IMG/VR virus record: IMGVR_UViG_3300044666_000001
Location: 1-37,995 of that record
Source: a virus
Direction: 5' to 3' (one strand)
Length of the DNA stretch: 37,995 nucleotides
A program made the translations under genes and the position numbers. Numbering within the stretch: the stretch's first letter is position 1; the number at the start of each line of letters is the position of its first letter. This document shows positions 128 to 19,060 of this stretch, one piece after another. The notes under the pieces were generated by a model. That model was not told the origin of the DNA. It did no database searches and saw only the letters and a list, made by a program, of their open reading frames with translations.

Positions 128-544
128 AGAGCGGGCCTGCGAAAGAAGTCGCGCGTATGCGTCCTTGAAAGCCATGCGCGCGCCGATCTTGTCTCCGCCA
201 TTCAGGACCGGCCGAGCGATTTCGAATGCCTGCTGCATTTCCTCCGTCCATACCACCGTGTCACGTTCGCTCAGCGCTGCAAGCGACATCGACCACGCCT
301 CATCGGACTCCGGACGACCGTCATTCCCCGCAATCTGCGCAATGATGTCAGCAGGCTTCGGGGCATAGCGACCGTGCACCGGATCCTTAATCGCAGCGTC
401 AATGCCCTGGCGAACAACCGCCATCGGGTATTGCGCCAAAGCCCGAAAGAACATCGCCTTTGCAGTCGGAGCAAGCGTTTTTCCATGCAGCGAATACGCC
501 GCGTCCAGCAACTCGGCAAACACGTCGAAATCATCTTCAGACAT
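1..544 (-). CDS. N-terminal part (181 codons) of a 247-aa early protein that continues at 37669-37868; replication-module position, weakly lambda P-like
   Basis: ATG at 544 overlaps the stop of the upstream gene by 8 nt. My translation MSEDDFDVFAELLDAAYSLHGK...REAQRVGRLPAPTVAALLPPP joins in frame to the ORF at 37669-37932. It lies directly downstream of the replisome-organizer-like gene. Confidence 0.7.
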   Translation of the reverse strand, partial: MSEDDFDVFAELLDAAYSLHGKTLAPTAKAMFFRALAQYPMAVVRQGIDAAIKDPVHGRYAPKPADIIAQIAGNDGRPESDEAWSMSLAALSERDTVVWTEEMQQAFEIARPVLNGGDKIGARMAFKDAYARLLSQARSAGTSAKWVASIGWDKDSAETVLREAQRVGRLPAPTVAALLPP

Positions 545-1304
545 CGATCACCTCGTGTTGTGGCCTATGGCCGAAAAGCAACGCCTTGGCAGCAGCGTTG
601 TCAGCTTCGCGCTGTGCTGGCATCGGAACGCCGTTGAAACGCCCGCGTGATTCGCTCGCTCTCGCAGGTGGCGCAGCGTCCTGTGCACGGCAGAGCCAGT
701 TCGTCAGGAAACGGGCGTAGTTCGATTTTTTGTTTTTCGGGTTGGCAATGACCCAAGCGGCAGCTTTCGAAAGCTCCGCGTCCAGGCTAAGGGCTGGATA
801 GGCTTCAGACCACGTGGACCGCTGCACATCGGAAATGCCGGTCCACTTGCCATGAGCGTCGAGCGCAATCGCGTTCGGCGCTGAAGAAGCGTTAGCTTCT
901 TCTTTCTTCTGTTCTGTATCTGTTCTGTTCTGTTCTAGGGCGTTACTGGAACGTTTCTGTAACGTTTCATTGTTTCCGCCCTGCTGTTTCTGCTTCTCTC
1001 GATACCTGCGAACCCGCTCTGTGCTTGAATCTGACTCATATTGGCGCTTGCTCCAGTTGAGCAAATTCCAGTCGGGATCGATAAAGCCACGACGCATGAA
1101 AACGTCTTTCGTCTCTGCCAGTTCCTGCTCTGAAACGCGCATCGCAAACGCAATCGATGTTTCACGCTCCGTTACATGAAACGTTTCAATACCGTTACTG
1201 CATTGCAGGCAGAACAACATGACGAGGCGACGCTGCATGGCTTCACTCATCATTTGTACCTTCGGGTCGGAAGCAAATTCCGAGTACATACGGAACCAAT
1301 CCAT
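537..1304 (-). CDS. Replication initiation / replisome-organizer-like protein
   Basis: 255-aa ORF. The N-terminus MDWFRMYSEFASDPKVQ...LFCL resembles phage replisome-organizer N-terminal domains. It sits in the lambdoid O-gene position downstream of ninB/ref and is translationally coupled to both neighbours. Confidence 0.6.
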   Translation of the reverse strand: MDWFRMYSEFASDPKVQMMSEAMQRRLVMLFCLQCSNGIETFHVTERETSIAFAMRVSEQELAETKDVFMRRGFIDPDWNLLNWSKRQYESDSSTERVRRYREKQKQQGGNNETLQKRSSNALEQNRTDTEQKKEEANASSAPNAIALDAHGKWTGISDVQRSTWSEAYPALSLDAELSKAAAWVIANPKNKKSNYARFLTNWLCRAQDAAPPARASESRGRFNGVPMPAQREADNAAAKALLFGHRPQHEVIDV

Positions 1305-2351: not shown

Positions 2352-2575
2352 ACAGCCACCCGGCGCGGGACACTTCGGCCCGAATCGTCACTGACTCCGA
2401 TCAGATCAGCAGGCAAAGTACCTACAGCACCGAGCAAGAACTGTTCGGTAATGCGGGCCATAGCAGCGGAATCGCTCTCGATGCCCTGCACAACCTTGAA
2501 ATGCTGGAGAGCTTCATATGCACGATCACGCAACCGTGTCTTTACTTCGTTACGAAATTCGGCTCGCTTTTTCAC
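2348..2575 (-). CDS. Hypothetical early protein (75 aa), in the cII-like position
   Basis: ORF overlaps the cro-like gene by 4 nt. The assignment rests on position only. Confidence 0.6.
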   Translation of the reverse strand: MKKRAEFRNEVKTRLRDRAYEALQHFKVVQGIESDSAAMARITEQFLLGAVGTLPADLIGVSDDSGRSVPRRVAV

Positions 2576-2769
2576 GCGTGCACCTCCGTGGGACGTGCCG
2601 CATCGAAATAAGACTGAAGGAGTTCAAGCTTCAAGACGCCCGGATTATCGATTCGACCTTGAGCGAACTTGGTCAGCCACCAATATGAGACGCCTGTCTG
2701 CTTGCAGATGTCGGGCCACTCCCCTTTACGGGCAGCAAGCTCGGTTCGTACTGAGATGATGAGAGACAT
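2572..2769 (-). CDS. Cro-like HTH DNA-binding protein
   Basis: 65 aa with the HTH segment ICKQTGVSYWWLTKFAQGR. It is the first gene downstream of a divergent promoter/operator region, with GAGGA 7 nt upstream of the ATG. Confidence 0.8.
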   Translation of the reverse strand: MSLIISVRTELAARKGEWPDICKQTGVSYWWLTKFAQGRIDNPGVLKLELLQSYFDAARPTEVHA

Positions 2770-2866: not shown

Positions 2867-3232
2867 ATGCTAGACACCAAAAAAATCCTCGCCGAGAACC
2901 TTTCGGCTCTCCTCGAAACACGACCTGATATCTCACGCCTGAATCTCTCAAAGCAGATTCAGGTAGCAGATGGGACGCTAGGCCGCATCAAGTACGGCAC
3001 GGGCAATCCAACGGTTGAAGTAATCGAGCAGATCGCAAGGTTCTTTAAGATCGAGCCCTGGCAGCTTTTAGTGCCTGCGCTCGGTCAGGGGCTTAAAGGT
3101 GCTAAGTGGCCGTTTACGTTCAGTCAGGACGATTTGAATCACTTGCCTCCCGAGGATTTAGACGAACTCGACCATCAGATTCGATACAAGATCGAACGAC
3201 ATATGGCTGTAAATCGCCGTGGGGCCGCGTAA
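2867..3232 (+). CDS. cI-like XRE-family HTH repressor without an S24 peptidase domain
   Basis: 121 aa. The N-terminal HTH (NLSKQIQVADGTLGRIKYGTGNPTVEVIEQIARFF) is divergent from the cro-like gene. The ~50-aa C-terminal tail has no Ser/Lys protease motifs. Confidence 0.85.
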   Translation: MLDTKKILAENLSALLETRPDISRLNLSKQIQVADGTLGRIKYGTGNPTVEVIEQIARFFKIEPWQLLVPALGQGLKGAKWPFTFSQDDLNHLPPEDLDELDHQIRYKIERHMAVNRRGAA

Positions 3233-3318: not shown

Positions 3319-3344
3319 AGCCGCCACATGGCGGCTAAATTTTT
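3319..3344 (+). terminator. Putative intrinsic terminator after the repressor gene
   Basis: Stem AGCCGCC (3319-3325) pairs with GGCGGCT (3330-3336) around the loop ACAT, followed by AAATTTTT. Confidence 0.5.
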
Positions 3345-3351
3345 CTCTACC

Positions 3352-3373
3352 ATCTAGCATTTAAGTGCTTGAC
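3352..3373. promoter_or_regulatory. Operator OL-a (ATCTAGC-N8-GCTTGAC)
   Basis: Same half-site family as the OR operators. It overlaps the -35 of the PL-like promoter. Confidence 0.6.
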
Positions 3374-3396
3374 AATTTTTCGGCCGCCCCTATACT
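3369..3396 (+). promoter_or_regulatory. PL-like sigma70 promoter for the early-left operon
   Basis: TTGACA (3369-3374) is followed by a 16-nt spacer and TATACT (3391-3396), about 33 nt upstream of the ATG at 3429. Confidence 0.7.
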
Positions 3397-3414
3397 AGCC
3401 ATACAGTGCTAGAA
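3393..3414. promoter_or_regulatory. Operator OL-b (TACTAGC-N8-GCTAGAA)
   Basis: CTAGC-N8-GCTAG core. It overlaps the -10 and the expected transcription start. Confidence 0.6.
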
Positions 3415-3418
3415 AACA

Positions 3419-3431
3419 GAGGACAGCCATG
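3419..3431 (+). repeat. RBS-ATG junction GAGGACAGCCATG, 12/13 identical to 4516-4528
   Basis: Read by eye. The two copies bracket the repeat-protein gene. Confidence 0.6.
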
Positions 3432-4517
3432 CAACCCACCAGCAGCACCCTTGATCTCGACCAAATCATTCTGAGCGCCGGAGGCCATGACGCCAACAGC
3501 GGCCAACACTGCCTGCTCGAAGTTGTGAGCATGTTTGCAGGCGAACCATTCGGAGATTCGCCCATATGCGTCGATCCGGTTCTCGCGGCGTTCGGTCGTG
3601 CCTGGAACGACGGTATGCGCACTGATGAGGAACGCGCTCAACTGAAGAAGTACATCCCCCTGCTCGTAGGCACCGCTGGCTCAAAAGAACTTTCGGAAAA
3701 GCGCTCGTGGATGGCCTTCGACTGGCTCGTGCGCGTGCATTGCGCTGCGTGGCTAGCACTCACGCCCGCGCTGAAAGTTCATGCTGACATTTTGATCTCG
3801 CTTCCAGTGATCACTTGCAAGGCTGAACTCGATATCGCGCTTCCTAAGATCAATGAGGCACGGGACGCCGCAGGGGGCGCCGCATGGGACGCCGCACGGG
3901 ACGCCGCACGGGACGCCGCATGGGACGCCGCAGGGGGCGCCGCATGGGACGCCGCACGGGACGCCGCACGGGACGCCGCATGGGACGCCGCAGGGGGCGC
4001 CGCATGGGACGCCGCATGGGACGCCGCACGGGCCGCCGCACGGGCCACCGCATGGGCCGCCGCACGGGCCACCGCATGGGCCGCCGCACGGGACGCCGCA
4101 TGGGACGCCGCAGGGGACGCCGCATGGGACGCCGCACGGGGCGCCGCACGGGCCACCGCATGGGACGCCGCACGGGCCGCCGCACGGGCCACCGCATGGG
4201 CCGCCGCATGGGACGCCGCAGGGGGCGCCGCATGGGACGCCGCACGGGCCGCCGCACGGGCCACCGCATGGGCCGCCGCAGGGGACGCCGCACGGGACGC
4301 CGCATGGGACGCCGCAGGGGGCGCCGCATGGGACGCCGCACGGGCCGCCGCACGGGCCACCGCATGGGCCGCCGCAGGGGACGCCGCACGGGGCGCCGCA
4401 CGGGCCGCCGCACGGGCCACCGCATGGGCCGCCGCAGGGGACGCCCTTGAATCCACCGTTAAAACCTTGCAGGTAAATGCGCACGAATTGTTCTCGCGCA
4501 TGATCGCCGCGAAGTGA
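3429..4517 (+). CDS. Orphan protein: ~144-aa N-terminal domain plus 48 tetrapeptide repeats [W/R/G][D/A/G][A/T]A plus a short C-terminal helix
   Basis: 362-aa ORF with GAGGA 5 nt upstream of the ATG. It is the first gene after the PL-like promoter, lies on the same strand as all downstream early genes, and its stop at 4515-4517 is 8 nt before the next ATG. I do not recognise the N-terminal domain. Confidence 0.8.
   Translation: MQPTSSTLDLDQIILSAGGHDANSGQHCLLEVVSMFAGEPFGDSPICVDPVLAAFGRAWNDGMRTDEERAQLKKYIPLLVGTAGSKELSEKRSWMAFDWLVRVHCAAWLALTPALKVHADILISLPVITCKAELDIALPKINEARDAAGGAAWDAARDAARDAAWDAAGGAAWDAARDAARDAAWDAAGGAAWDAAWDAARAAARATAWAAARATAWAAARDAAWDAAGDAAWDAARGAARATAWDAARAAARATAWAAAWDAAGGAAWDAARAAARATAWAAAGDAARDAAWDAAGGAAWDAARAAARATAWAAAGDAARGAARAAARATAWAAAGDALESTVKTLQVNAHELFSRMIAAK
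3861..4445 (+). repeat. Tandem array of 48.75 copies of the 12-nt unit NGGGNCRCCGCA
   Basis: I walked the array unit by unit. There are no indels and 9 of 12 positions are invariant. Only position 1 (T/C/G), position 5 (A/C/G) and position 7 (G/A) vary. Exact higher-order copies are 3885-3944 = 3945-4004 (60 nt) and 4221-4292 = 4317-4388 (72 nt). Confidence 0.97.
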
Positions 4518-5730: not shown

Positions 5731-5946
5731 ATGATCGAAACTGAAGACGCATTCTGGCTTGTTTGGTCTCCGACCGGTACTACTCCCCCTACTCATCGCC
5801 ATGAGCACTATCACCTTGCCCAAACAGAAGCGGAGCGACTGGCTCGTCTTTATCCGGGGGAAGAGTTCTACGTGCTGATAGCCCAAACCAAACGTGTTGT
5901 GTGTGACATGAAGCGAATTGACCTTGTCGCTCCTATCCCATTCTGA
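5731..5946 (+). CDS. Hypothetical early protein (71 aa)
   Basis: ATG at 5731 with GAGGGA upstream (the ORF track begins at 5644). Confidence 0.6.
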   Translation: MIETEDAFWLVWSPTGTTPPTHRHEHYHLAQTEAERLARLYPGEEFYVLIAQTKRVVCDMKRIDLVAPIPF

Positions 5947-5953
5947 GGTGGTC

Positions 5954-6730
5954 ATGACTACTGCAACTGAATTCGATGTTGTCGACGTGGCGGCTAAGGA
6001 ACCCGCACAGCGCGCCATTGCCACGGCTCGCTCTGCCACGCCAGCAGACCTCCTGCGCATCGCTGTTGAAGGGGGCGCCGATCTTGACCGCCTGGAAAAG
6101 CTGATGGGCCTGCAAGAACGTTGGGAAGCTAAGGAGGCCAAGCGAGCGTACGACGCAGCTTTCGCAGCTTTCAAGGCTGAGGCGATCACGATCCTGAAGG
6201 GCCGTAAGGTCACCGACGGGCCGCTCAAGGGGAAGTCTTACGCTGAACTTCACGACATTGTGAATGCGGTCACGCCTGCCCTTTCTAAGCATGGCCTTTC
6301 GTCGTCGTGGAAGCTCACGATTGATGAAAAGGACTGGATGCAAGTGACGTGCTATCTGCGCCACGTCAATGGCCACGAGGAAAGCGTTTCGATGGGAGGG
6401 CCTCCTGACGCAGGAGGCGCTAAGAACGCCATTCAGGCCCGGGCAAGTACCAAGACCTATCTTGAGCGCTACACCCTCAAGGCAATCACCGGCCTGTCTG
6501 AGCAGGATGACGATGACGATGGTCGCGGTAACCAACGTGCTGATATGGCAGTACGCGACGGCTGGATTACGAAGGCCAAAGAAGCCAAGACCGCTGCTGA
6601 TCTTGAACAAGTTTGGAAGGACGGAGTTAAAGCTATCAAGGCTACTAAGGACATGGGCCTGTACAACGAGTTCAAGCACATTGTGGAGAGCAAGGGTGCT
6701 GACTTCAAAGCCGCTGAGGACTCGAAATGA
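5954..6730 (+). CDS. erf: ERF-family single-strand annealing protein
   Basis: KSYAELHDIVNAVTPALSKHGL and NAIQARASTKTYLERYTLKAITGLSEQDDDDDG parallel P22 Erf (YKYRSCEDILEGVKPLL and SSYARKYCLNGLFGIDD). ATG at 5954 follows GAGGTGG. Confidence 0.8.
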   Translation: MTTATEFDVVDVAAKEPAQRAIATARSATPADLLRIAVEGGADLDRLEKLMGLQERWEAKEAKRAYDAAFAAFKAEAITILKGRKVTDGPLKGKSYAELHDIVNAVTPALSKHGLSSSWKLTIDEKDWMQVTCYLRHVNGHEESVSMGGPPDAGGAKNAIQARASTKTYLERYTLKAITGLSEQDDDDDGRGNQRADMAVRDGWITKAKEAKTAADLEQVWKDGVKAIKATKDMGLYNEFKHIVESKGADFKAAEDSK

Positions 6731-7359
6731 TCCTAATCCAGTGCGAACAAGGCTCTCCCGAATGGCACGCAGCCCGTACCGGCGTGATTACGGCCAGCAA
6801 GTTTCGTGAAGCTCTTGAGACGACGCAGAAAGGTAAACCGACATCCAAATCGTCTCTCTATGCCGCCCAGGTAGCGATTGAGCGTATCAGCGGTCAGCCG
6901 TGCGACGAAGGTTTCAATTCCTGGCAGATGAAACGCGGTCAGGAAATGGAACCCATGGCGCGCATGGAGTACGAGGCACAAACGGGAAACTTCGCCAGCG
7001 AATCTGGAATCGTCCTGACTTATGACCGTCTGTTTGGCTACTCCACAGACGGCTTGGTTGGTGACGACGGCCTTATCGAAATCAAATCGCTTGTGAGTGC
7101 CATCGGGGTTTTGGAAATGTGGCGCGACCGTGACCTGTCCGAGTACATGCATCAGATCCAAGGCGGTTTATGGCTCACTGGTCGAAAGTGGTGTGACTTC
7201 GTGATGTATGCACCTCAGCTAGAACCAGTGGGAAAGCAACTGTTTCGCATGCGCGTCGAACGAGATGACAAATTCATAGATGAAATGGTTAAGAAGCTTC
7301 TGGACTTCTCTGACATCGTAAACGAAAACGAACATATTTTGCGCGAGAAAGTCGCCTGA
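6727..7359 (+). CDS. YqaJ/lambda-exonuclease-like recombination exonuclease
   Basis: GSPEWHAARTGVITASKF N-terminus and IEIKS motif. ATGA coupling to erf. Confidence 0.85.
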   Translation: MILIQCEQGSPEWHAARTGVITASKFREALETTQKGKPTSKSSLYAAQVAIERISGQPCDEGFNSWQMKRGQEMEPMARMEYEAQTGNFASESGIVLTYDRLFGYSTDGLVGDDGLIEIKSLVSAIGVLEMWRDRDLSEYMHQIQGGLWLTGRKWCDFVMYAPQLEPVGKQLFRMRVERDDKFIDEMVKKLLDFSDIVNENEHILREKVA

Positions 7360-10539: not shown

Positions 10540-10722
10540 ATGATGATCTTCACAATCGGCCTAGTCGTGGCAATAGTCTTCTGGACTCTAGGGAAGGCGA
10601 CAGCCCCGGTCCTTTTTGAGGAACCGCCCGAGATTCACTACATCTTCTCTCTGTTGTTTCTGGTTGGCATTCTTACGATGGTCATCTCACTTTGCATGCT
10701 GGCTTGGAGATATCTTCCATGA
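10540..10722 (+). CDS. Small two-TM membrane protein (~60 aa)
   Basis: MMIFTIGLVVAIVFWTLGK...IFSLLFLVGILTMVISLCMLAW, with GAGGAGG immediately upstream. Bracketed by the 16-bp direct repeats. Confidence 0.6.
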   Translation: MMIFTIGLVVAIVFWTLGKATAPVLFEEPPEIHYIFSLLFLVGILTMVISLCMLAWRYLP

Positions 10723-10733
10723 GACAGAACGAG
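10718..10733 (+). repeat. 16-bp direct repeat, partner of 10519-10534
   Basis: Exact match. Confidence 0.9.
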
Positions 10734-11705
10734 ATCATTCTGGGCGACTACGGCGATACGGTACACGTCGTCTCGATGTCCGGCGGCAAAGACAGCACCG
10801 CGACAGCGATCCTCGCTATCGAATTACACGGCCGCGAGAATTGCCGCTTCGTGTTCGCCGACACCGGGAATGAACACGAAGCCACCTACGAATACGCCCT
10901 TGGTTACTTGCCCGAGGCACTCGACATCGCCGTCGAAGTGGTAAGTGCGTCCTTCGCAGATGAGTTTGCGACGAAGCGCGCCAATTTGTCGCGAATTGCT
11001 TCGGGCGAGCCGGAAAGCGCCGTATATGGGAAGCGCGAGTTCAAATATCGTTGGACGCCGGAAGCGGCCGCACAGGCCCTCGAACTGCTGGTGCCCACCG
11101 GAAACCCTTTCCTCGATCTGTGCATGCTGAAAGGTGGATTTCCGTCGCGGCGCCGCCAGTTCTGCACCGAGCACTTGAAGCGCAACCCGTTGACCGAATT
11201 CCAGCTCGGGCTGATCGATGAAGGACGGCACGTCGAGTCGTGGCAGGGGGTCCGCGCCGACGAGTCAGAGGCTCGCCGCTGGCTTCCGTCGTACGAGTAC
11301 CTCGGCGGAGGAATGGCGATCCATCGACCGATCCTACGATGGACCGTTGACGACGTTTTCGAGGCTCATCGCGCTTACGGCATCGTGCCCAACCCTCTCT
11401 ACCGACAGGGCATGAGCCGCGTCGGGTGCATGCCCTGCATAAACTGCGGAAAAGCCGAACTGACCGAGATTGCTCGCCGCTTCCCTGAGCACATCGAGAG
11501 GATTGAATTATGGGAACGGCTGGTGCAAAGCGTCACCCGGCCTGATTCACCGGCAACGTTCTTTCATCACCAGAAGAATGGTGCCGCCGGTGTGAGGGCT
11601 GCCGTATCGTGGGCACGCACATCGCGTGGAGGACGACAATTCTCGCTACTGACCGATCTTGCGGAGCCGACGGCCTGTTCCTCGGCTTACGGGCTATGCG
11701 AATGA
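10719..11705 (+). CDS. PAPS-reductase-family (PP-loop ATP pyrophosphatase) protein
   Basis: The PP-loop motif VVSMSGGKDSTA lies near the N-terminus. ATG at 10719 forms an ATGA overlap (the ORF track begins at 10692). Confidence 0.85.
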   Translation: MRQNEIILGDYGDTVHVVSMSGGKDSTATAILAIELHGRENCRFVFADTGNEHEATYEYALGYLPEALDIAVEVVSASFADEFATKRANLSRIASGEPESAVYGKREFKYRWTPEAAAQALELLVPTGNPFLDLCMLKGGFPSRRRQFCTEHLKRNPLTEFQLGLIDEGRHVESWQGVRADESEARRWLPSYEYLGGGMAIHRPILRWTVDDVFEAHRAYGIVPNPLYRQGMSRVGCMPCINCGKAELTEIARRFPEHIERIELWERLVQSVTRPDSPATFFHHQKNGAAGVRAAVSWARTSRGGRQFSLLTDLAEPTACSSAYGLCE

Positions 11706-11721
11706 CCACCCACCCGGCCAC

Positions 11722-11736
11722 GGCCGAAGCACTGAA
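11722..11736 (+). repeat. 15-bp direct repeat GGCCGAAGCACTGAA, partner at 12199-12213
   Basis: Exact match read by eye. Confidence 0.9.
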
Positions 11737-11752
11737 CTGTCAGAGGTACATC

Positions 11753-12169
11753 ATGCCGATCAAGCCAGAGAACAAGGCCCGCTATCCGGCCAACTGGAAG
11801 CAGATACGCGCGCAGGTGCTGGAGCGCGCGCAGCACAAGTGCGAGCAGTGCGGTGTTGCGAACCGGGCGCGCATTGTGCGCGGTACCGGCCCGGACGCCG
11901 ACACGTACATGACCCACGATGCTGAAGTCTATGACGCAGACACCGGCGAATACCTCGGCCTGCGCCGCATGAGCGATTACCACTGCAACGGCAACGTAAC
12001 CGACATCGTGCTCACGATTGCGCATCTCGACCACCAGCCCGAGAACTGTGTCCTCGAGAACCTGAGAGCGTGGTGCCAGCGATGTCACCTGCGGTATGAC
12101 GCCCGGCACCACGCCGCGAACGCAGCAGCCACACGCCGAGCACGGAAGGCCATAGCAGAACTGTTTTGA
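11753..12169 (+). CDS. HNH endonuclease
   Basis: CEQCG...IAHLDHQPENCVLENLRAWCQRCHLRYD is an HNH/zinc-finger signature. ATG at 11753 follows GAGG; an alternative start is at 11702. Confidence 0.85.
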   Translation: MPIKPENKARYPANWKQIRAQVLERAQHKCEQCGVANRARIVRGTGPDADTYMTHDAEVYDADTGEYLGLRRMSDYHCNGNVTDIVLTIAHLDHQPENCVLENLRAWCQRCHLRYDARHHAANAAATRRARKAIAELF

Positions 12170-12252: not shown

Positions 12253-12474
12253 ATGGAATCGTTGACCCTTACCGAAAGTGAGATCGTCGAGGCGACCGGC
12301 TACAGGCAGCCCATCAAGCAACTCGCCGCCCTGCAACGAGCCGGAATTCCTGCCGACCGGCGCCCGGACGGAAGCGTCCGAGTGTGGCGCCACCACATCA
12401 CCGGAGTTGGGGCTGCAAAGCAGTCTCCGCAGCGCCGTGAACCCAAACTCAAATCTGATCGCAAAGCGGCGTGA
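12253..12474 (+). CDS. DUF4224-like small DNA-binding protein, probable excisionase
   Basis: LTLTESEIVEATGYRQPIKQLAALQRAGIP matches the DUF4224 pattern. It lies immediately upstream of int and overlaps it by 4 nt. Confidence 0.65.
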   Translation: MESLTLTESEIVEATGYRQPIKQLAALQRAGIPADRRPDGSVRVWRHHITGVGAAKQSPQRREPKLKSDRKAA

Positions 12475-13580
12475 AAATGATCGGACGACGCAAAAATGCC
12501 TCTCCCCTCCCCGCTCGCGTGTACGAAAAGCATGGCTCATGGTGGTTCGTCGACGCGCGCAGGAAATGGCACAAGCTTTGCCGTGTTGCTGACGGGCTCA
12601 CGACTCTGTACAGTGAACTGGCGAAGTTCACGCGCGACGCGGATGCCAAGCCGGTTGATACGATGCCGGCCCTAATCGATGATTGGCTCGTGAAGAAGCT
12701 CGGCAAATATGCCCAGTCGACGCGCCAAGACTACCGGCGCATGGCGACATTCATCCGCAGCGAGTTCGATAACGAATGGCTGGTGACAGACGTCAAACCG
12801 ACTCACATCGCCCGATTCCTCGACAAGCACTTCGAGGGAAAGCCAAATACCAGCAATAAATATCGCGCGCTTTTCTCGCTCCTATTCTCGCATGCAGTTC
12901 GTAAGGGCCTGCGTGATAGCAATCCCGCCAGCGAGGTCGACGGTGCCGTAGAAAAGAGGCGAGATCGGTACATCACCGATGCCGAGTTGGATGCGATCAG
13001 ACAAGCCGTGATAATGGGCCGCGACGGACGAGAGACAGACTCGGGGAAAACTATAGTGTGTCTGATCGACCTTGCCTACCAGACTGCACAGCGCATCAGC
13101 GATTTGCTGCTGCTCAACTGGCAGGATGTCAGCGACGAGGGTATTTACTTCAAGCCCGCCAAGACCGTGAACTCGAGTGGCGTTCGCATGCTGGTGGAAA
13201 TGACCCCTGACCTACAGGCAACCATCGACAGTGCGAAGGGTGGGAAAGTGAAAGCGATAGGCCCAGTGATTTGCACCCAGACCGGCAACAGATTCACGTA
13301 TAGCGGCGCGCAATCTGCTTGGAAACGCGCGTGCCAACGTGCTCGGGAAAGCTACGAGAAGATGTGCGTGGAGAAGGGCATCACGCCCGATGAGCGCTTC
13401 TTGAGAGATATGCATTTCCACGACTTAAGAGCCAAGGCGCTGACAGATATGAAGCGCCTTGAGGGTGCCACCGCAGCTCAGGCACTTGGCGGCCATACAA
13501 CCGCCGAAATGACTGCCCATTACACCAAGTCGAGGCAGGTGGAACGGGTTTCCCCGGTGCCACTGAAGCGGGCCGGTTGA
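12471..13580 (+). CDS. int: Tyrosine recombinase / phage integrase
   Basis: 369 aa with the catalytic signature QTAQRISD (R), HFHDLRAK (HxxR) and GHTTAEMTAHYTK (H...Y). Confidence 0.95.
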   Translation: MKMIGRRKNASPLPARVYEKHGSWWFVDARRKWHKLCRVADGLTTLYSELAKFTRDADAKPVDTMPALIDDWLVKKLGKYAQSTRQDYRRMATFIRSEFDNEWLVTDVKPTHIARFLDKHFEGKPNTSNKYRALFSLLFSHAVRKGLRDSNPASEVDGAVEKRRDRYITDAELDAIRQAVIMGRDGRETDSGKTIVCLIDLAYQTAQRISDLLLLNWQDVSDEGIYFKPAKTVNSSGVRMLVEMTPDLQATIDSAKGGKVKAIGPVICTQTGNRFTYSGAQSAWKRACQRARESYEKMCVEKGITPDERFLRDMHFHDLRAKALTDMKRLEGATAAQALGGHTTAEMTAHYTKSRQVERVSPVPLKRAG

Positions 13581-13821: not shown

Positions 13822-13921
13822 ACGATCCAGCGATGCCCAGCAGCAGAGCGCCATTATGGCCGCCATCAACTGGAAAAAGCGCAGTATGCTAAATTTCGGC
13901 TTTCCAAAAGATCAGGCAAAA

Positions 13922-14980
13922 ATGAAGCACATCAGAGGATTCGATGGATTGCGGGCATTCGCAGTTCTTGGCGTAATGTTCGTTCACCTAGGATGGAAGC
14001 CCTTTGAATATGGCTGGGTTGGCGTCCCCTTCTTCTTCGTGTTGTCCGGATTCCTGATCACCGAAATCTTGCTTGATAACAAAGAGTCCAACGCACGTAC
14101 CTTCTTCTCAGTCTTTTATGTGCGTCGGGCGCTACGAATTTTCCCGCTGTACTTCTTGTATCTCGCTGTGATCGGGGCATGGTGCGCACTCCTGGGCGTC
14201 AAGACCGAAGGGTGGCCGTGGTTCTTCATTTATCTTCAAAACTACTATCTCGGCGCGCGTGACTTGCGTTTGACGCCAGGCATGGACCTTTCGCATACCT
14301 GGTCGTTGGCTGTCGAGGAACAGTTTTATATGCTCTGGCCGCTGGTCATATTCGCCACATCGCGGCAATTGCTAAAGGCTCTCTGCGTGCTGCTCATCGT
14401 GGGTGGGGTCGTCTCGCGTTACTGGATAGCCAACAACCTTCAATATGTGGCATTCGCGCCCCTCTCATCAAACTTAGACACGCTGTGCCTCGGCGCACTT
14501 CTTGCGATACTCGCGCGTGATAGTGATACCAAATTCGCCAACTTCTCTCGGGTAACCCTAGTTATAGGTATCGCGCTTTTGATAGCGATCAATGTCTGGC
14601 CACCTGGCACTCTGAATGCTTCGAATAGCATTTTCATGTTTGTTCTTGCTATCGTGTTCGCTGGCGTAGTAGGCACTGTCGCGTGCAGCACAAACGGCTT
14701 TGGTCTGGAATGGAAGCCGCTCGCCTATATCGGACGCATCAGCTACGGCTTGTACATTTGGCATGCCTTCGGTTATGGAATTGTCAGTGTCGCCGTATAC
14801 CACAAATGGGTGCCGGATCTTGGGTGGATGGTCAATGACATTGCCCGCATCGCGATTACTTTCGGTATTGCGACGGTGTCGTTCCACTACTTCGAGCGGC
14901 CGATTCTGCGCTTGAAAGACCGGGTGTCCTATGGCGCAGCGCGGCCAGGGAGATCGCCCGGGAATGCGGCAACATCCTGA
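13922..14980 (+). CDS. Acyltransferase family 3 (OafA/Oac-like) integral membrane protein; probable O-antigen/surface-glycan acetylase (lysogenic conversion)
   Basis: MKHIRGFDGLRAFAVLGVMFVH N-terminus, multiple TM segments and a SWSLAVEEQFY motif. Visibly AT-rich. Located between attP and the lysis genes. An alternative start is at 13856. Confidence 0.85.
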   Translation: MKHIRGFDGLRAFAVLGVMFVHLGWKPFEYGWVGVPFFFVLSGFLITEILLDNKESNARTFFSVFYVRRALRIFPLYFLYLAVIGAWCALLGVKTEGWPWFFIYLQNYYLGARDLRLTPGMDLSHTWSLAVEEQFYMLWPLVIFATSRQLLKALCVLLIVGGVVSRYWIANNLQYVAFAPLSSNLDTLCLGALLAILARDSDTKFANFSRVTLVIGIALLIAINVWPPGTLNASNSIFMFVLAIVFAGVVGTVACSTNGFGLEWKPLAYIGRISYGLYIWHAFGYGIVSVAVYHKWVPDLGWMVNDIARIAITFGIATVSFHYFERPILRLKDRVSYGAARPGRSPGNAATS

Positions 14981-16227: not shown

Positions 16228-16548
16228 TTAGCTCCCGAGAATCTTCTGGCGAGCCGCATCCAGCCACTTTGGAATCTGCTGGATAAGGCTGCTCACGCCA
16301 GATAGGCCGAAGACTGACGCCGCCGCGATCGCCGCCATGTGCGTGACGCTGCCTGGCGTGATTGCGTAGTACTCGGCCGCCGCTCCCCCTGCCAGGCAGC
16401 CGATACCCACGCTCGCCCCGAACGAGAGCCCGCGCTGCCACCAATTCCCCGGAATGAACTTGAGTGAGACGGCAGCCCCGAACGCTGCGGAGCCGCCGAT
16501 TTTCACAAGTAACGTCGTTTGGTCATCCATGATTCCCCCATCATCCAC
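16228..16548 (-). CDS. Three-TM membrane protein (holin candidate) with two early Met codons
   Basis: 106 aa beginning MDDGGIMDDQ, followed by three hydrophobic segments. It overlaps the tail-fibre stop by 8 nt. Confidence 0.65.
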   Translation of the reverse strand: MDDGGIMDDQTTLLVKIGGSAAFGAAVSLKFIPGNWWQRGLSFGASVGIGCLAGGAAAEYYAITPGSVTHMAAIAAASVFGLSGVSSLIQQIPKWLDAARQKILGS

Positions 16549-18895
16549 CCACGCGCGTTGCCTTCGCCACCAAACTATTCCGAATTAAGGAGCCATTGCA
16601 GCTTGCACTCCCGGATGCCTCAATAAGCCAGATACCAGTTGCAGGAATAGTCAACGTCGTGTTTGCCAAGCCAGTCGTTCCATTCACCCGCAACGCAATA
16701 TTAATAATTTGCCCCGAAGTAGAATTAATAGAAATAGTATTGAAAGCAGTTCCGGTATATAGCGCTGAACTTCCACTACCACTGCCTGCTGCATAGCAAG
16801 CGCCCCCGGGAGTTCCATTAATAACAGCCTCGACAAAATCACCAGATACAGCCGCAATTGATGTGCCAACATTTGATGAAAACACTACCGGATTCAACCA
16901 ACGCGATATCTCACGTTGAATCGCTTGGATCAGTGGGCGAATTGCTCCGAAATAAATGGTGTAATGCCCAATAATGCTAGGATGATTGCCGGAACCCCCT
17001 AGTGAGTTAGGGTTAGTCAACTCATCACCGATGCCGCACATCACTTCGTCTGGAATCTCATTGAATCCAATGCAGCGAGCATATCCGGCTTGCGACCGGA
17101 ACCTAACCGCAGTCCCAGGGCCAGACATTAAAAGACCATAATATCCATACACGATGCCCTGATAATCAAATACATCCATAACTTTTTTAGAGTTTATGAA
17201 TACTTTATGATGAGCACCAATAGATTCTATTTTTACAACTACTTGCGAACCAACAGAAATTGGATCAATAGGAGTAGACGCAATTGGAACACTGTTCCAA
17301 TAGAATACAGCTTGAGGTACGCTTGGCTGGATATGCAAATGATATGACTGATCCAAATTGTTTGGATTGGCTCGCCAGATCATACCGAATACCGTCGACA
17401 CATCATTAAATACAAAGGCCGCAGAACCGATGAAATTCATATTTAGTGCTGGCCTAACAGCACTACCATTAGCAGCCCATGTAAAAGTATCATTGCTATA
17501 GGATGGTTTAACCCCAGAAGCTACAACCCATGAAGAAAAATCCGGAGCACCGATAGTAAATCGAGTACGGGTAGATGCAATATCATACCCTTCGCGATAA
17601 GCTCGACATAGACGGTTTGCATCAAGCAAGCTTGTATTCAATTCAAGAGCCACTCCTCGTGCAGCATCTGCGACAGCTTGCAAAATTGGATTCAATGACT
17701 TAAAAGGCTCAGTTTTTCTAGTGGGCAACATATCATTCATGATTGCCACACTTGGAACTTTTGTCCACGTACGAATGCGATTGATGATGAGATTTTTCAT
17801 CGTCGCCGCCCACGCATTTGTATCGCCTTGTGTCGCATTCATACCAAAATTTAGAATCACCAGATCTGGTGATTCATCACGGATATGGTTATACCAAGTC
17901 TTCCCTACAACCGAACCAGTAGGCCACAATGTATAATTTGGTACGTCTCTTTGCCAACCGGGGGTTCGATAAAAATTGATAGCCGGATTCTCTGGGGGAT
18001 TAGCTCCGACAAAAGTGTCGCTATTAGCCTCTCCAACATCTTTTCCAGAGATAGAATAATTAACAAAATTCCAAGTAACTCCAGGAAAAGAATCTCGGCA
18101 ATATTGCTCGAAGAGACCTGCCCAAGAATCTCCATAGGCAATGTCATTCGTTCCCTCAGCAATTGAATGTCCCCAGATAGCAACCTTTACGGTACCTCCA
18201 GAGATTGCGGCTTGAAGTTGTCTAATATCTCCAACGCGCCCTTCAATATCATGCGTGACAATCTTGCTTGAACGCCAAGCCTGCATATTGAATACACCAC
18301 CAGCAGAATCAACAATACTGCCAGGTCCAATTAGTGTCTTCGTTGATGCAATACTTGTCGTAAAACTGCCGGGCGGAAGAAAAATTGCAGTATCCTCAGG
18401 AGGAAGCGCCTCTACGGCAGAAAAAGCCGTATCTCCAGACCCAAAATCCGATACCCTTATATCTTCTTGGTTTCGATCATGTTGGGTTCTTGGGACACCT
18501 CCTGTCGCTGTCTGTTTGACCCCAACTAAAGCGTCCCCCTTGGATGCATCGGAGGTATCGGCAAGATCAGAAATGAATCCATTCAGTTGCTGTTGAATTG
18601 AATCAACTGATTGATTTGCATAATAGGCCGGATCCGTTGTGATCACGTCATAAATCAAATTCCCGCTAGAATCCTTCAAAACTTGACGATAAACTCCATT
18701 CCCCCAAATTTTTGCCTCTCCTCGGGCATCCAATATAACCGGATTGGTATTCAGCACTGTCATTTCCGGATCTTGCCAAGTATTCTTGAGGGTACTGGTA
18801 TTGGGAATGTAAAATGTGACAGACCCACCCACCAATGGGTTACCATTGTTATCGAAAAATTGGGTACATCCAGCAGGAAGGATATTTGCCGTCAT
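16541..18895 (-). CDS. Tail fibre/tailspike with a central SGNH/GDSL-type esterase signature
   Basis: 784 aa. The conserved phage fibre N-terminus is present (TQFFDNNGNPLVGGSVTFYIPNTST...NPVILDARGE). SGNH blocks are AIWGHSIAEG (Ser nucleophile), LVILNFGMNA and GSGNHPSIIGH. The gene is markedly more AT-rich than the genome. Confidence 0.85.
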   Translation of the reverse strand: MTANILPAGCTQFFDNNGNPLVGGSVTFYIPNTSTLKNTWQDPEMTVLNTNPVILDARGEAKIWGNGVYRQVLKDSSGNLIYDVITTDPAYYANQSVDSIQQQLNGFISDLADTSDASKGDALVGVKQTATGGVPRTQHDRNQEDIRVSDFGSGDTAFSAVEALPPEDTAIFLPPGSFTTSIASTKTLIGPGSIVDSAGGVFNMQAWRSSKIVTHDIEGRVGDIRQLQAAISGGTVKVAIWGHSIAEGTNDIAYGDSWAGLFEQYCRDSFPGVTWNFVNYSISGKDVGEANSDTFVGANPPENPAINFYRTPGWQRDVPNYTLWPTGSVVGKTWYNHIRDESPDLVILNFGMNATQGDTNAWAATMKNLIINRIRTWTKVPSVAIMNDMLPTRKTEPFKSLNPILQAVADAARGVALELNTSLLDANRLCRAYREGYDIASTRTRFTIGAPDFSSWVVASGVKPSYSNDTFTWAANGSAVRPALNMNFIGSAAFVFNDVSTVFGMIWRANPNNLDQSYHLHIQPSVPQAVFYWNSVPIASTPIDPISVGSQVVVKIESIGAHHKVFINSKKVMDVFDYQGIVYGYYGLLMSGPGTAVRFRSQAGYARCIGFNEIPDEVMCGIGDELTNPNSLGGSGNHPSIIGHYTIYFGAIRPLIQAIQREISRWLNPVVFSSNVGTSIAAVSGDFVEAVINGTPGGACYAAGSGSGSSALYTGTAFNTISINSTSGQIINIALRVNGTTGLANTTLTIPATGIWLIEASGSASCNGSLIRNSLVAKATRVGG

Positions 18896-19060
18896 TTGAG
18901 ATTCCCGAGTAGAAATTTATCTTATGTCTCTGCCCTCGGGAGACTACTTAACGGGCGACTACCGCCAATTTTGAGGTTTGGCTAAACCATGCAAGATCCG
19001 TACTTACTGAAGGCCGTCGGAACGTCTCTCGGCCTTGGAATTGCCACCGCGCTACACGCG

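Follow-up and report, generated by a model that had tools for sequence, protein, structure and literature searches.

A 12-nt tandem array in a gene of a P22-like phage evolves as a coding minisatellite

We describe a tandem array of 12-nt units that lies in frame within a 362-aa open reading frame (ORF; positions 3429–4517, plus strand) of the IMG/VR virus record IMGVR_UViG_3300044666_000001, a temperate P22-like phage with relatives among Pandoraea prophages. The window, by which we mean the whole stretch of DNA that was analyzed, covers positions 1–37,995 of that record. The array evolves like a coding minisatellite that undergoes concerted evolution: Units are joined head to tail in frame, silent sites are homogeneous within arrays, and close relatives differ in copy number by whole units. 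The explanation we consider probable is that duplication and deletion of units outpace mutation, with selection holding the mix of residues at two positions of the encoded tetrapeptide.

Tandem Repeats Finder reported one array at positions 3858–4445 (588 nt, plus strand), with a period of 12, 49.0 copies, 0% indels, and a score of 756. In the codon register GCA-NGG-GNC-RCC, the 49 units encode A-[W/R/G]-[D/A/G]-[A/T], and we denote the second and third residues x1 and x2. Unit positions 4 (C in 21 units, T in 19, G in nine), 8 (A in 24, C in 18, G in seven), and 10 (G in 42, A in seven) vary; the remaining nine of the 12 positions are identical in 49 of 49 units. There are eight unit types (ARDA, AWDA, ARAA, ARAT, AWAA, AGGA, AGDA, and ARGA). 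An initial annotation of this DNA had described the same content in a register that starts 3 nt later (at 3861) and so gives 48 complete units; its account of indel-free units with nine invariant and three variable positions was accurate. The exact 60-nt and 72-nt copies that it reported (3885–3944 = 3945–4004 and 4221–4292 = 4317–4388) are present, and each extends to a 95-nt exact match. The first belongs to a five-unit (60-nt) higher-order repeat at positions 3862–4016 (3862–3956 = 3922–4016) and the second to an eight-unit (96-nt) higher-order repeat at positions 4202–4392 (4202–4296 = 4298–4392), both on the plus strand. A two-unit pattern searched with up to three mismatches matched the window 48 times, compared with 0.02 matches expected in shuffled sequences, and all matches were inside the array.

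The absence of stop codons in all six frames, to which attention had been drawn, is real but uninformative. It is a trivial outcome of base composition and unit periodicity, because a periodic sequence with 83% GC contains only 24 distinct trinucleotides, and because 51 of 67 related arrays (described below) are equally open.

The units do not differ from each other at synonymous sites, as had been claimed: Codon counts were 49/49 for GCA, 21/21 for CGG, 9/9 for GGG, and 24/24 for GAC, and the fourth codon was either GCC or ACC. Considered by itself, the window makes this absence suggestive but not significant, since the pattern is underlain by five to seven mutational events and not by 48 independent units. 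Five events suffice to connect the eight unit types when recombination is allowed, and seven when it is not; 11 of the 36 possible single-base changes to the consensus unit are synonymous, and the chance that five to seven events are all nonsynonymous is 0.16–0.08. The strong evidence comes from the comparison of arrays across the protein family. Codon bias was rejected as the cause of the uniform codons. In the 19 other genes of the window, CGG, GGG, and GCA are minority codons (12%, 20%, and 17% of the codons for their amino acids, respectively), and the N-terminal domain of the array's own gene uses neither CGG nor GGG. The array codons are thus not those preferred by the phage, and their uniformity reflects identity by descent.

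To place the array among its relatives, DNA was recovered for 120 further loci (including Ralstonia phage RS-CA1), and their arrays were parsed. The comparison set was limited to arrays that share this unit type and have eight or more units, 67 distinct arrays in all. At the silent unit positions 3, 9, and 12, diversity was 0.054, 0.038, and 0.076 within arrays and 0.678, 0.377, and 0.534 between arrays, corresponding to Fst-like values of 0.86–0.92. At unit positions 4 and 8, within-array diversity was 0.62 and 0.49, between-array diversity was similar, and Fst-like values were only 0.14 and 0.07. Across arrays, alanine was encoded by GCA, GCC, GCG, or GCT and x2 by GAC/GCC or GAT/GCT, with each array internally uniform. 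This difference in silent-site diversity (0.04–0.08 within versus 0.38–0.68 between arrays) supports the earlier suggestion of a recent expansion with concerted evolution. A minor allele at a frequency of at least 15% was found at position 4 in 65 of 67 arrays and at position 8 in 64 of 67, and arrays typically had four to 11 unit types. Position 10, which switches Ala to Thr, was polymorphic in just 10 of 67 arrays; the proposed check, whether the same three positions vary in orthologous arrays, therefore came out positive for two of them and not for the third. Low-frequency silent variants occurred in 14–24 arrays per silent position, indicating that ordinary mutation is visible but does not accumulate.

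Pairs of close relatives show what changes instead. Loci L071 and L074 aligned over 3548 nt with zero mismatches and a single 36-nt (three-unit) gap, which was in the array. Loci L107 and L111 were 99.94% identical over 6.5 kb and had arrays of different lengths, and among loci with 99% identical N-domain DNA the arrays could no longer be aligned. Near-identical phages thus differ only by whole-unit indels, in line with the block duplication and frame-preserving length change proposed from the window. Arginine was encoded only by CGG in 29 arrays, only by AGG in 24, and by a mixture in one (53 of 54 exclusive). The exclusive arginine codons, the small number of unit types, and the unit indels between near-identical phages together indicate that units turn over far more rapidly than they acquire point mutations.

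The same data bear on the possibility, raised in the initial annotation, that unit positions 4, 8, and 10 are rewritten by templated or targeted hypermutation, whether or not of the kind seen in diversity-generating retroelements. Variation confined to a few nucleotide positions, all of it nonsynonymous, and at the same positions family-wide, is what such a process would produce. Yet CGG and AGG encode the same residue and are single steps apart, both one step from TGG or GGG, so a high mutation rate at position 4 would mix them within arrays, and they are exclusive. Near-identical genomes differ by unit indels and not by point changes, and the variable positions lack the all-four-bases spectrum expected of adenine mutagenesis. 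A scan against PHROGs found no reverse transcriptase among 35 ORFs (most of the longer ORFs of the window, with small ORFs partly scanned), and the window holds no template copy, all of the two-unit pattern matches being those in the array itself. We therefore rejected a diversity-generating retroelement or similar process and consider hypermutation of any kind extremely improbable.

Returning to rapid unit turnover with slow mutation, this combination would homogenize the array and would also remove neutral polymorphism at positions 4 and 8, yet polymorphism is present there in ∼65 of 67 arrays. Persistent polymorphism at two positions amid homogenization needs selection on protein composition, a component that had been overlooked. 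The composition of units was consistent across arrays: Trp occupied 0.36 ± 0.14 of units, Arg 0.34, Gly 0.25, and Asp 0.44 ± 0.15; Arg minus Asp per unit was −0.09 ± 0.19; and the variance of composition was only 1.6–2.7 times binomial. Unit order was statistically random, and x1 and x2 were nearly independent. We infer stabilizing selection for a mixed, roughly charge-balanced, Trp-containing, Ala-rich helix; selection for one particular unit order is unlikely.

Selection could alternatively act on what the array binds. Residues x1 and x2 might form a recognition surface under diversifying selection; in a host–phage arms race, unit shuffling would then yield novel binding specificities. We regard this as unlikely. 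Trp, Arg, and Asp are typical ligand- or nucleic-acid-contacting residues, and otherwise identical phages carry different arrays. The gene stands first in a probably repressor-controlled early operon (see below), a typical site of host-directed accessory genes. The signature, near-identical repeats including silent sites with variation limited to specific codons, is also that of TALE and HNWD repeats, and in HNWD genes, new specificities are documented to arise by rearrangement of the repeats (Chevanne et al. 2010, PMC2873952). In its boldest version, which we find just as unlikely, two variable residues (W/R/G and D/A) at each 6-angstrom helical step would make up a combinatorial surface, quickly reshuffled, with which a widespread class of phage early proteins could follow a changing host target, such as a defense protein or a periodic polymer like nucleic acid. 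New specificities would arise through unit duplication and deletion, possibly catalyzed by the phage recombinase, in a functional analog of TALE diresidues or HNWD repeats built on a four-residue module. Set against this idea are the random unit order, with no positional or periodic signal; a composition that is tightly constrained and not diversified; and an alphabet of only three by two main states. A copy number ranging from three to 49 is hard to square with a defined target, and no conserved partner gene was found nearby in a crude ORF clustering of 116 loci. Were the array surface to bind a target, it would represent a novel type of modular recognition repeat.

A different class of explanation holds that the array is kept for a function of its DNA or RNA, such as a G-quadruplex or R-loop, iteron-like protein sites, or a recombination hotspot, and that the peptide is secondary. 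We judge this very unlikely. Its attraction is a run of three to five Gs every 12 nt on the nontemplate strand, just 3′ of a strong promoter; the GGG core is common to 67 of 80 arrays, and the third base of Arg and Gly codons at x1 is always G, contrary to local codon preference. But the G-run is dictated by the codons for [W/R/G][D/A/G], and some subfamilies lack it: The AAxx peptide is retained with no G-run where AGG/GAG/TGG is followed by TCG (for example, in the unit GCA-AGG-TCG-GCC) or CTC/TAC/CGC by GGC/GAC (as in GCT-CTC-GGC-GCG). Silent bases differ freely among arrays; conservation is instead seen in the peptide pattern and the in-frame C-terminal helix. The proposed structures fared no better. 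The G4Hunter score of the array averaged 0.43 with a maximum of 0.96, under the usual threshold of 1.2; the loops are 8–9 nt long, leaving zero G3+N1–7 motifs; and the minimum-free-energy RNA fold used no quadruplex even when one was allowed. The array GC skew of 0.039 (254 G vs. 235 C) is far from the strong G-over-C skew of R-loop-prone repeats, and the window had no Rfam match. Formation of a G-quadruplex or R-loop, as initially envisaged, is thus unsupported, and selection on the nucleotide sequence itself mostly so. The top G4Hunter score of the window (1.56) was at ∼8900, outside the array.

The subfamilies with other alphabets (loci L090, L101, L120, L028, L105, and L086) encode AA[R/E/W]S, with AGG/GAG/TGG followed by TCG or AGC, and AA[L/Y/R][G/D]. 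Codons are uniform within their arrays as well. Since these alphabets share both the AAxx pattern and the codon uniformity, the AAxx architecture is older than any one DNA unit.

We also considered that the length and unit order of the window array may be an assembly artifact, the repeat being real and the 49 units and higher-order copies being misassembled. The array is the longest seen, no exact copy of the window protein exists in the public collection, and 16 of 121 related loci are on contigs that end inside the array. However, the unit order is aperiodic with eight types, the intact reading frame joins the conserved C-terminal helix, and in silico collapse or expansion would usually yield a simpler periodic structure. 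Arrays of 43 units (L013) and 38 units (L110) were present in other assemblies. We therefore think it improbable that misassembly produced the array as we see it. The loci whose contigs end inside the array are L002 (Pandoraea commovens LMG 31010), L042, L010, L068, L076, L080, L083, L085, L098, L100, L104–L106, L024, L025, and L029, with L002 and L042 representing a single sequence twice. The 16 include the closest relative (92% identity) of the window's gene. Such truncation means that long arrays are under-sampled.

At the protein level, the ORF consists of a 143-aa N-terminal head domain (positions 3429–3857, plus strand), the 49 tetrapeptides, and a 23-aa tail, LESTVKTLQVNAHELFSRMIAAK (positions 4446–4514, plus strand). 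The head is supported by a 21-sequence alignment, by AlphaFold2, and by 4090 cluster representatives (see below). The tail is a conserved helix with near-invariant residues L340, T343, Q348, A351, L354, and M358 and is predicted to pack onto the head. In an AlphaFold2 model of the window protein, built with a 38-sequence alignment, the head had predicted local distance difference test (pLDDT) scores of 92–98, the array was modeled as two long helices (residues 131–237 and 249–360) running out and back to the head, and the C-terminal segment docked on the head with scores of 94–98. The model of a natural five-unit homolog (mean pLDDT of 93) had the same head, and its array sat at the tip of the final helical hairpin. 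The ∼196 residues of (Ala-Ala-x1-x2)n, where x1 is W, R, or G and x2 is D, A, or G, are thus predicted to form a long helical hairpin, or stalk, inserted between the last two helices of a globular head made of the N-terminal domain and the C-terminal helix. The models point robustly to the two ends of the array being anchored side by side in the head, so that copy number would set the length of a protruding hairpin or loop. We examined and rejected the idea that Gly units mark regular helix turns every 20–24 residues: The distances between Gly units follow a geometric-like distribution, with a lag autocorrelation of ∼1.

Residues invariant in the head across the 21-sequence alignment include G18, H20, C28, E31, G38, E39, D43, P45, and C47 and, among others, W59, N60, D61, R92, D98, W99, R102, and W108. 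The polar, Cys, and His residues among these (H20, C28, E31, E39, D43, C47, N60, D61, R92, D98, and R102) are candidates for a metal site or an active site.

Taken together, these data suggest the following course of events. Replication slippage or unequal recombination would duplicate and delete whole units and multiunit blocks much faster than point mutations build up, perhaps assisted by the phage's own Erf-like annealing protein and exonuclease, for which we envisage a catalytic role. Units would then all be recent copies of a few types, with silent positions homogenized and synonymous differences absent. Crossover junctions inside units could reshuffle the few variable bases and unlink neighboring ones. 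Selection at the protein level would keep a mixed, roughly charge-balanced x1/x2 composition, so that these two codon positions stay polymorphic and the rest uniform. Each 12-nt event would alter the stalk by four residues and leave the frame intact.

Several points weigh against this reading. Slippage or recombination in the window phage is deduced indirectly, from the pattern, and selection on composition by excluding high mutation. The count of 49 units is the one given by the assembly. The array hairpin has pLDDT scores of 46–85, a moderate confidence only, and the strict four-residue period misfits the heptad (3.5-residue) packing of canonical antiparallel coiled coils or alacoils, leaving the detailed packing uncertain. 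Finally, Arg and Gly units in all 67 arrays have, almost without exception, a G as the third base of the x1 codon, a site held more firmly than other silent sites. This G may be kept because Trp requires TGG and the bases are linked under intra-array recombination; a DNA or RNA constraint could also explain it.

The protein that contains the array belongs to a large family. A word-indexed search with the N-domain returned 69 homologs, all hypothetical proteins of 97–258 aa, from Pandoraea (86%–90% identity), Burkholderia, Paraburkholderia, Cupriavidus, and metagenomes. An exhaustive search of cluster representatives (clusters at 50% identity) with the head domain returned 4090 at E ≤ 1e-3. Ralstonia phage RS-CA1 is the sole cultured GenBank phage that carries the family. 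The architecture of head domain, (A-A-x1-x2)n, and conserved C-terminal helix is near universal among homologs, and in more than 100 of them the frame stays open from the N-domain through the array to the helix at any copy number. Copy numbers among homologs ranged from three to 43, making the window array the longest fully assembled one found; Pandoraea relatives with 88%–92% N-domain identity had complete arrays of six, eight, 13, and 19 units.

Searches for a function yielded little. The only profile match of the ORF was phrog_8332 (E = 2.4e-20, 74 bits, residues 89–206), a match that lies partly over the low-complexity array, to a family with no functional annotation. Neither the protein nor its N-domain matched anything in Pfam, NCBIfam, or PADLOC; among 38 family members scanned against Pfam, the sole match was a marginal, Tox-PAAR-like one (E = 0.008), and a sequence-profile search of the PDB gave only a chance match (E = 0.81). 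Foldseek searches with the head and full models found nothing below E = 4 in the PDB and matched only uncharacterized phage proteins in BFVD. A literature search on the peptide motifs returned nothing relevant. The top match of the representative search, P0070 (3796 aa, with InlB-B-repeat and beta-propeller regions), was rejected because a short motif (residues 11–55) was matched repetitively over 31 stretches. Our working guess is that the array protein serves as an accessory protein, made early and directed at the host, with a stalk that can vary freely in length and surface.

The ORF is preceded by a ribosome-binding site (GAGGA, 5–9 nt 5′ of the ATG) and by a sigma-70-type promoter at positions 3369–3396 (plus strand; TTGACA-16-TATACT, 11 of 12 consensus matches, 33 nt 5′ of the ATG). 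Two operator-like palindromes of the type CTAGC-N8-GCTAG (3352–3372 and 3394–3414; together 3352–3414) overlap its −35 and −10 hexamers. Three more are located at positions 2800–2874, in an OR-like region between divergent helix-turn-helix genes; five of the six sites in the 38-kb window with at most one mismatch to this palindrome type fall at 3352–3414 or 2801–2873. The divergent genes are a repressor-like gene of the cI/Cro type (2867–3232, plus strand; HTH_3, phrog_4583) and a small regulator (2572–2769, minus strand; phrog_9425) that leads an operon with NinB-like and DnaD-like genes. A terminator-like hairpin (3319–3336) with a T-run (together 3319–3346, plus strand) separates the repressor-like gene from the promoter. 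Downstream from the array gene, on the same strand, small ORFs are followed by genes for an Erf-like single-strand annealing protein (5918–6730) and an exonuclease (6727–7359). Given the immunity region, the terminator-like hairpin, the promoter, and the operator-like sites, the array gene is very probably the first gene of an early operon, with control by the repressor suggested by this anatomy. The arrangement of five palindromes in two clusters (2800–2874 and 3352–3414) resembles lambda OR/OL, here in a P22-like phage of a Burkholderiales host.

Upstream DNA was not conserved even among relatives with 88%–92% identity, and homology began at the ribosome-binding site. Two relatives, L002 (∼5880–5990) and L004 (∼5930–5990), had a promoter-like TTGAC(A/C)...TATA(T/C)T just 5′ of the gene, in L002 preceded by a terminator-like hairpin; the upstream DNA of relatives was otherwise unrelated. 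Because relatives keep a promoter-like site despite unrelated upstream DNA, the gene behaves as a self-contained, moron-like cassette. The clustering of the 116 loci gave no conserved neighbor gene, and exonucleases, RecT-like genes, and Erf-like genes recurred only loosely.

The remainder of the window encodes a portal, terminase, major head protein, Hc3 connector, ejection protein, tailspike-like protein, endolysin, integrase, and O-antigen acetylase. The integrase gene (12471–13580) is followed by the O-antigen acetylase-like gene (13856–14980), a likely lysogenic-conversion moron. A PAPS-reductase-like gene is found at 10692–11705 and an HNH endonuclease at 11609–12169. GC content drops to 0.43–0.45 at positions 17001–19000, compared with ∼0.55 elsewhere, inside a gene for a 784-aa tail or tailspike-like protein (16541–18895, minus strand), hinting at a receptor-binding module gained by horizontal transfer. 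The window has one more, small tandem repeat, (TTCTG)x5.8, at positions 907–936 inside the DnaD-like replication gene (537–1304, minus strand). A tRNA scan of the window, like the Rfam scan, gave no match.

The mechanism behind the variation pattern is conventional, and the finding extends it to a large, unstudied family of phage proteins; the array marks ∼4090 clusters (at 50% identity) of wholly uncharacterized phage and prophage proteins. Arrays are the fastest-evolving feature of otherwise identical phage genomes and would serve as sensitive strain-typing markers for Burkholderiales prophages. They also break short-read assemblies, with ∼13% of related contigs ending inside one. Finally, they offer a clean natural system in which to measure slippage and recombinase-driven repeat turnover in phages.

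Several known systems share parts of this behavior. TALE arrays of Xanthomonas, Ralstonia, and Burkholderia are built of 33–35-residue units, each a two-helix hairpin that reads one DNA base. As in TALE arrays, the units described here are almost identical in DNA, including silent sites, and the array probably evolves through recombination and the gain or loss of units. Most variation falls in two neighboring codons, x1 and x2, the fourth residue having a minor variant only. They differ from TALE repeats in the four-residue unit, in the random-looking order, and in having no sequence or fold similarity (no PDB fold match). The WD-repeat arrays of the HNWD genes (het-d/e/r) of Podospora anserina are extremely polymorphic and undergo concerted evolution, with deletions and duplications creating new unit combinations (Chevanne et al. 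2010, PMC2873952). They belong to eukaryotic STAND proteins with 42-residue WD40 units and have a demonstrated role in recognition specificity (PMC2873952). The window array is similar in its polymorphic repeat region, concerted evolution, and rearrangement by unit deletion and duplication and differs in unit size, fold, and homology.

Diversity-generating retroelements also confine variation to particular nucleotide positions of a phage gene, all nonsynonymously. In contrast to them, the window yielded no reverse transcriptase (among the 35 ORFs), template repeat, or adenine-specific pattern, and the target is a tandem array and not a C-type lectin fold. Unlike at a phase-variable on/off contingency locus, gain or loss of a 12-nt unit inside the ORF changes length only. 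The NANP/NVDP repeats of the Plasmodium falciparum circumsporozoite protein, a surface antigen that is not a helical hairpin, arise by slipped-strand mispairing and have many synonymous unit variants. Those repeats too have a 12-nt unit encoding a tetrapeptide, dozens of copies, and a minority variant unit; unlike them, the window array has no synonymous variants.

Further parallels come from bacterial surface proteins. The alpha C protein of group B streptococci carries nucleotide-identical tandem repeats, and staphylococcal clumping factor has a stalk of Ser-Asp repeats. As in these minisatellites (variable number tandem repeats), units of the phage array are joined head to tail in frame, silent sites are homogenized within the array, and copy number varies between close relatives with the frame kept, likely yielding a spacer or stalk of variable length. 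Unlike them, the phage unit is only four residues long and resides in a cytoplasmic early phage protein and not in a surface antigen, and two residue positions are polymorphic in nearly every array, in hosts of several phyla.

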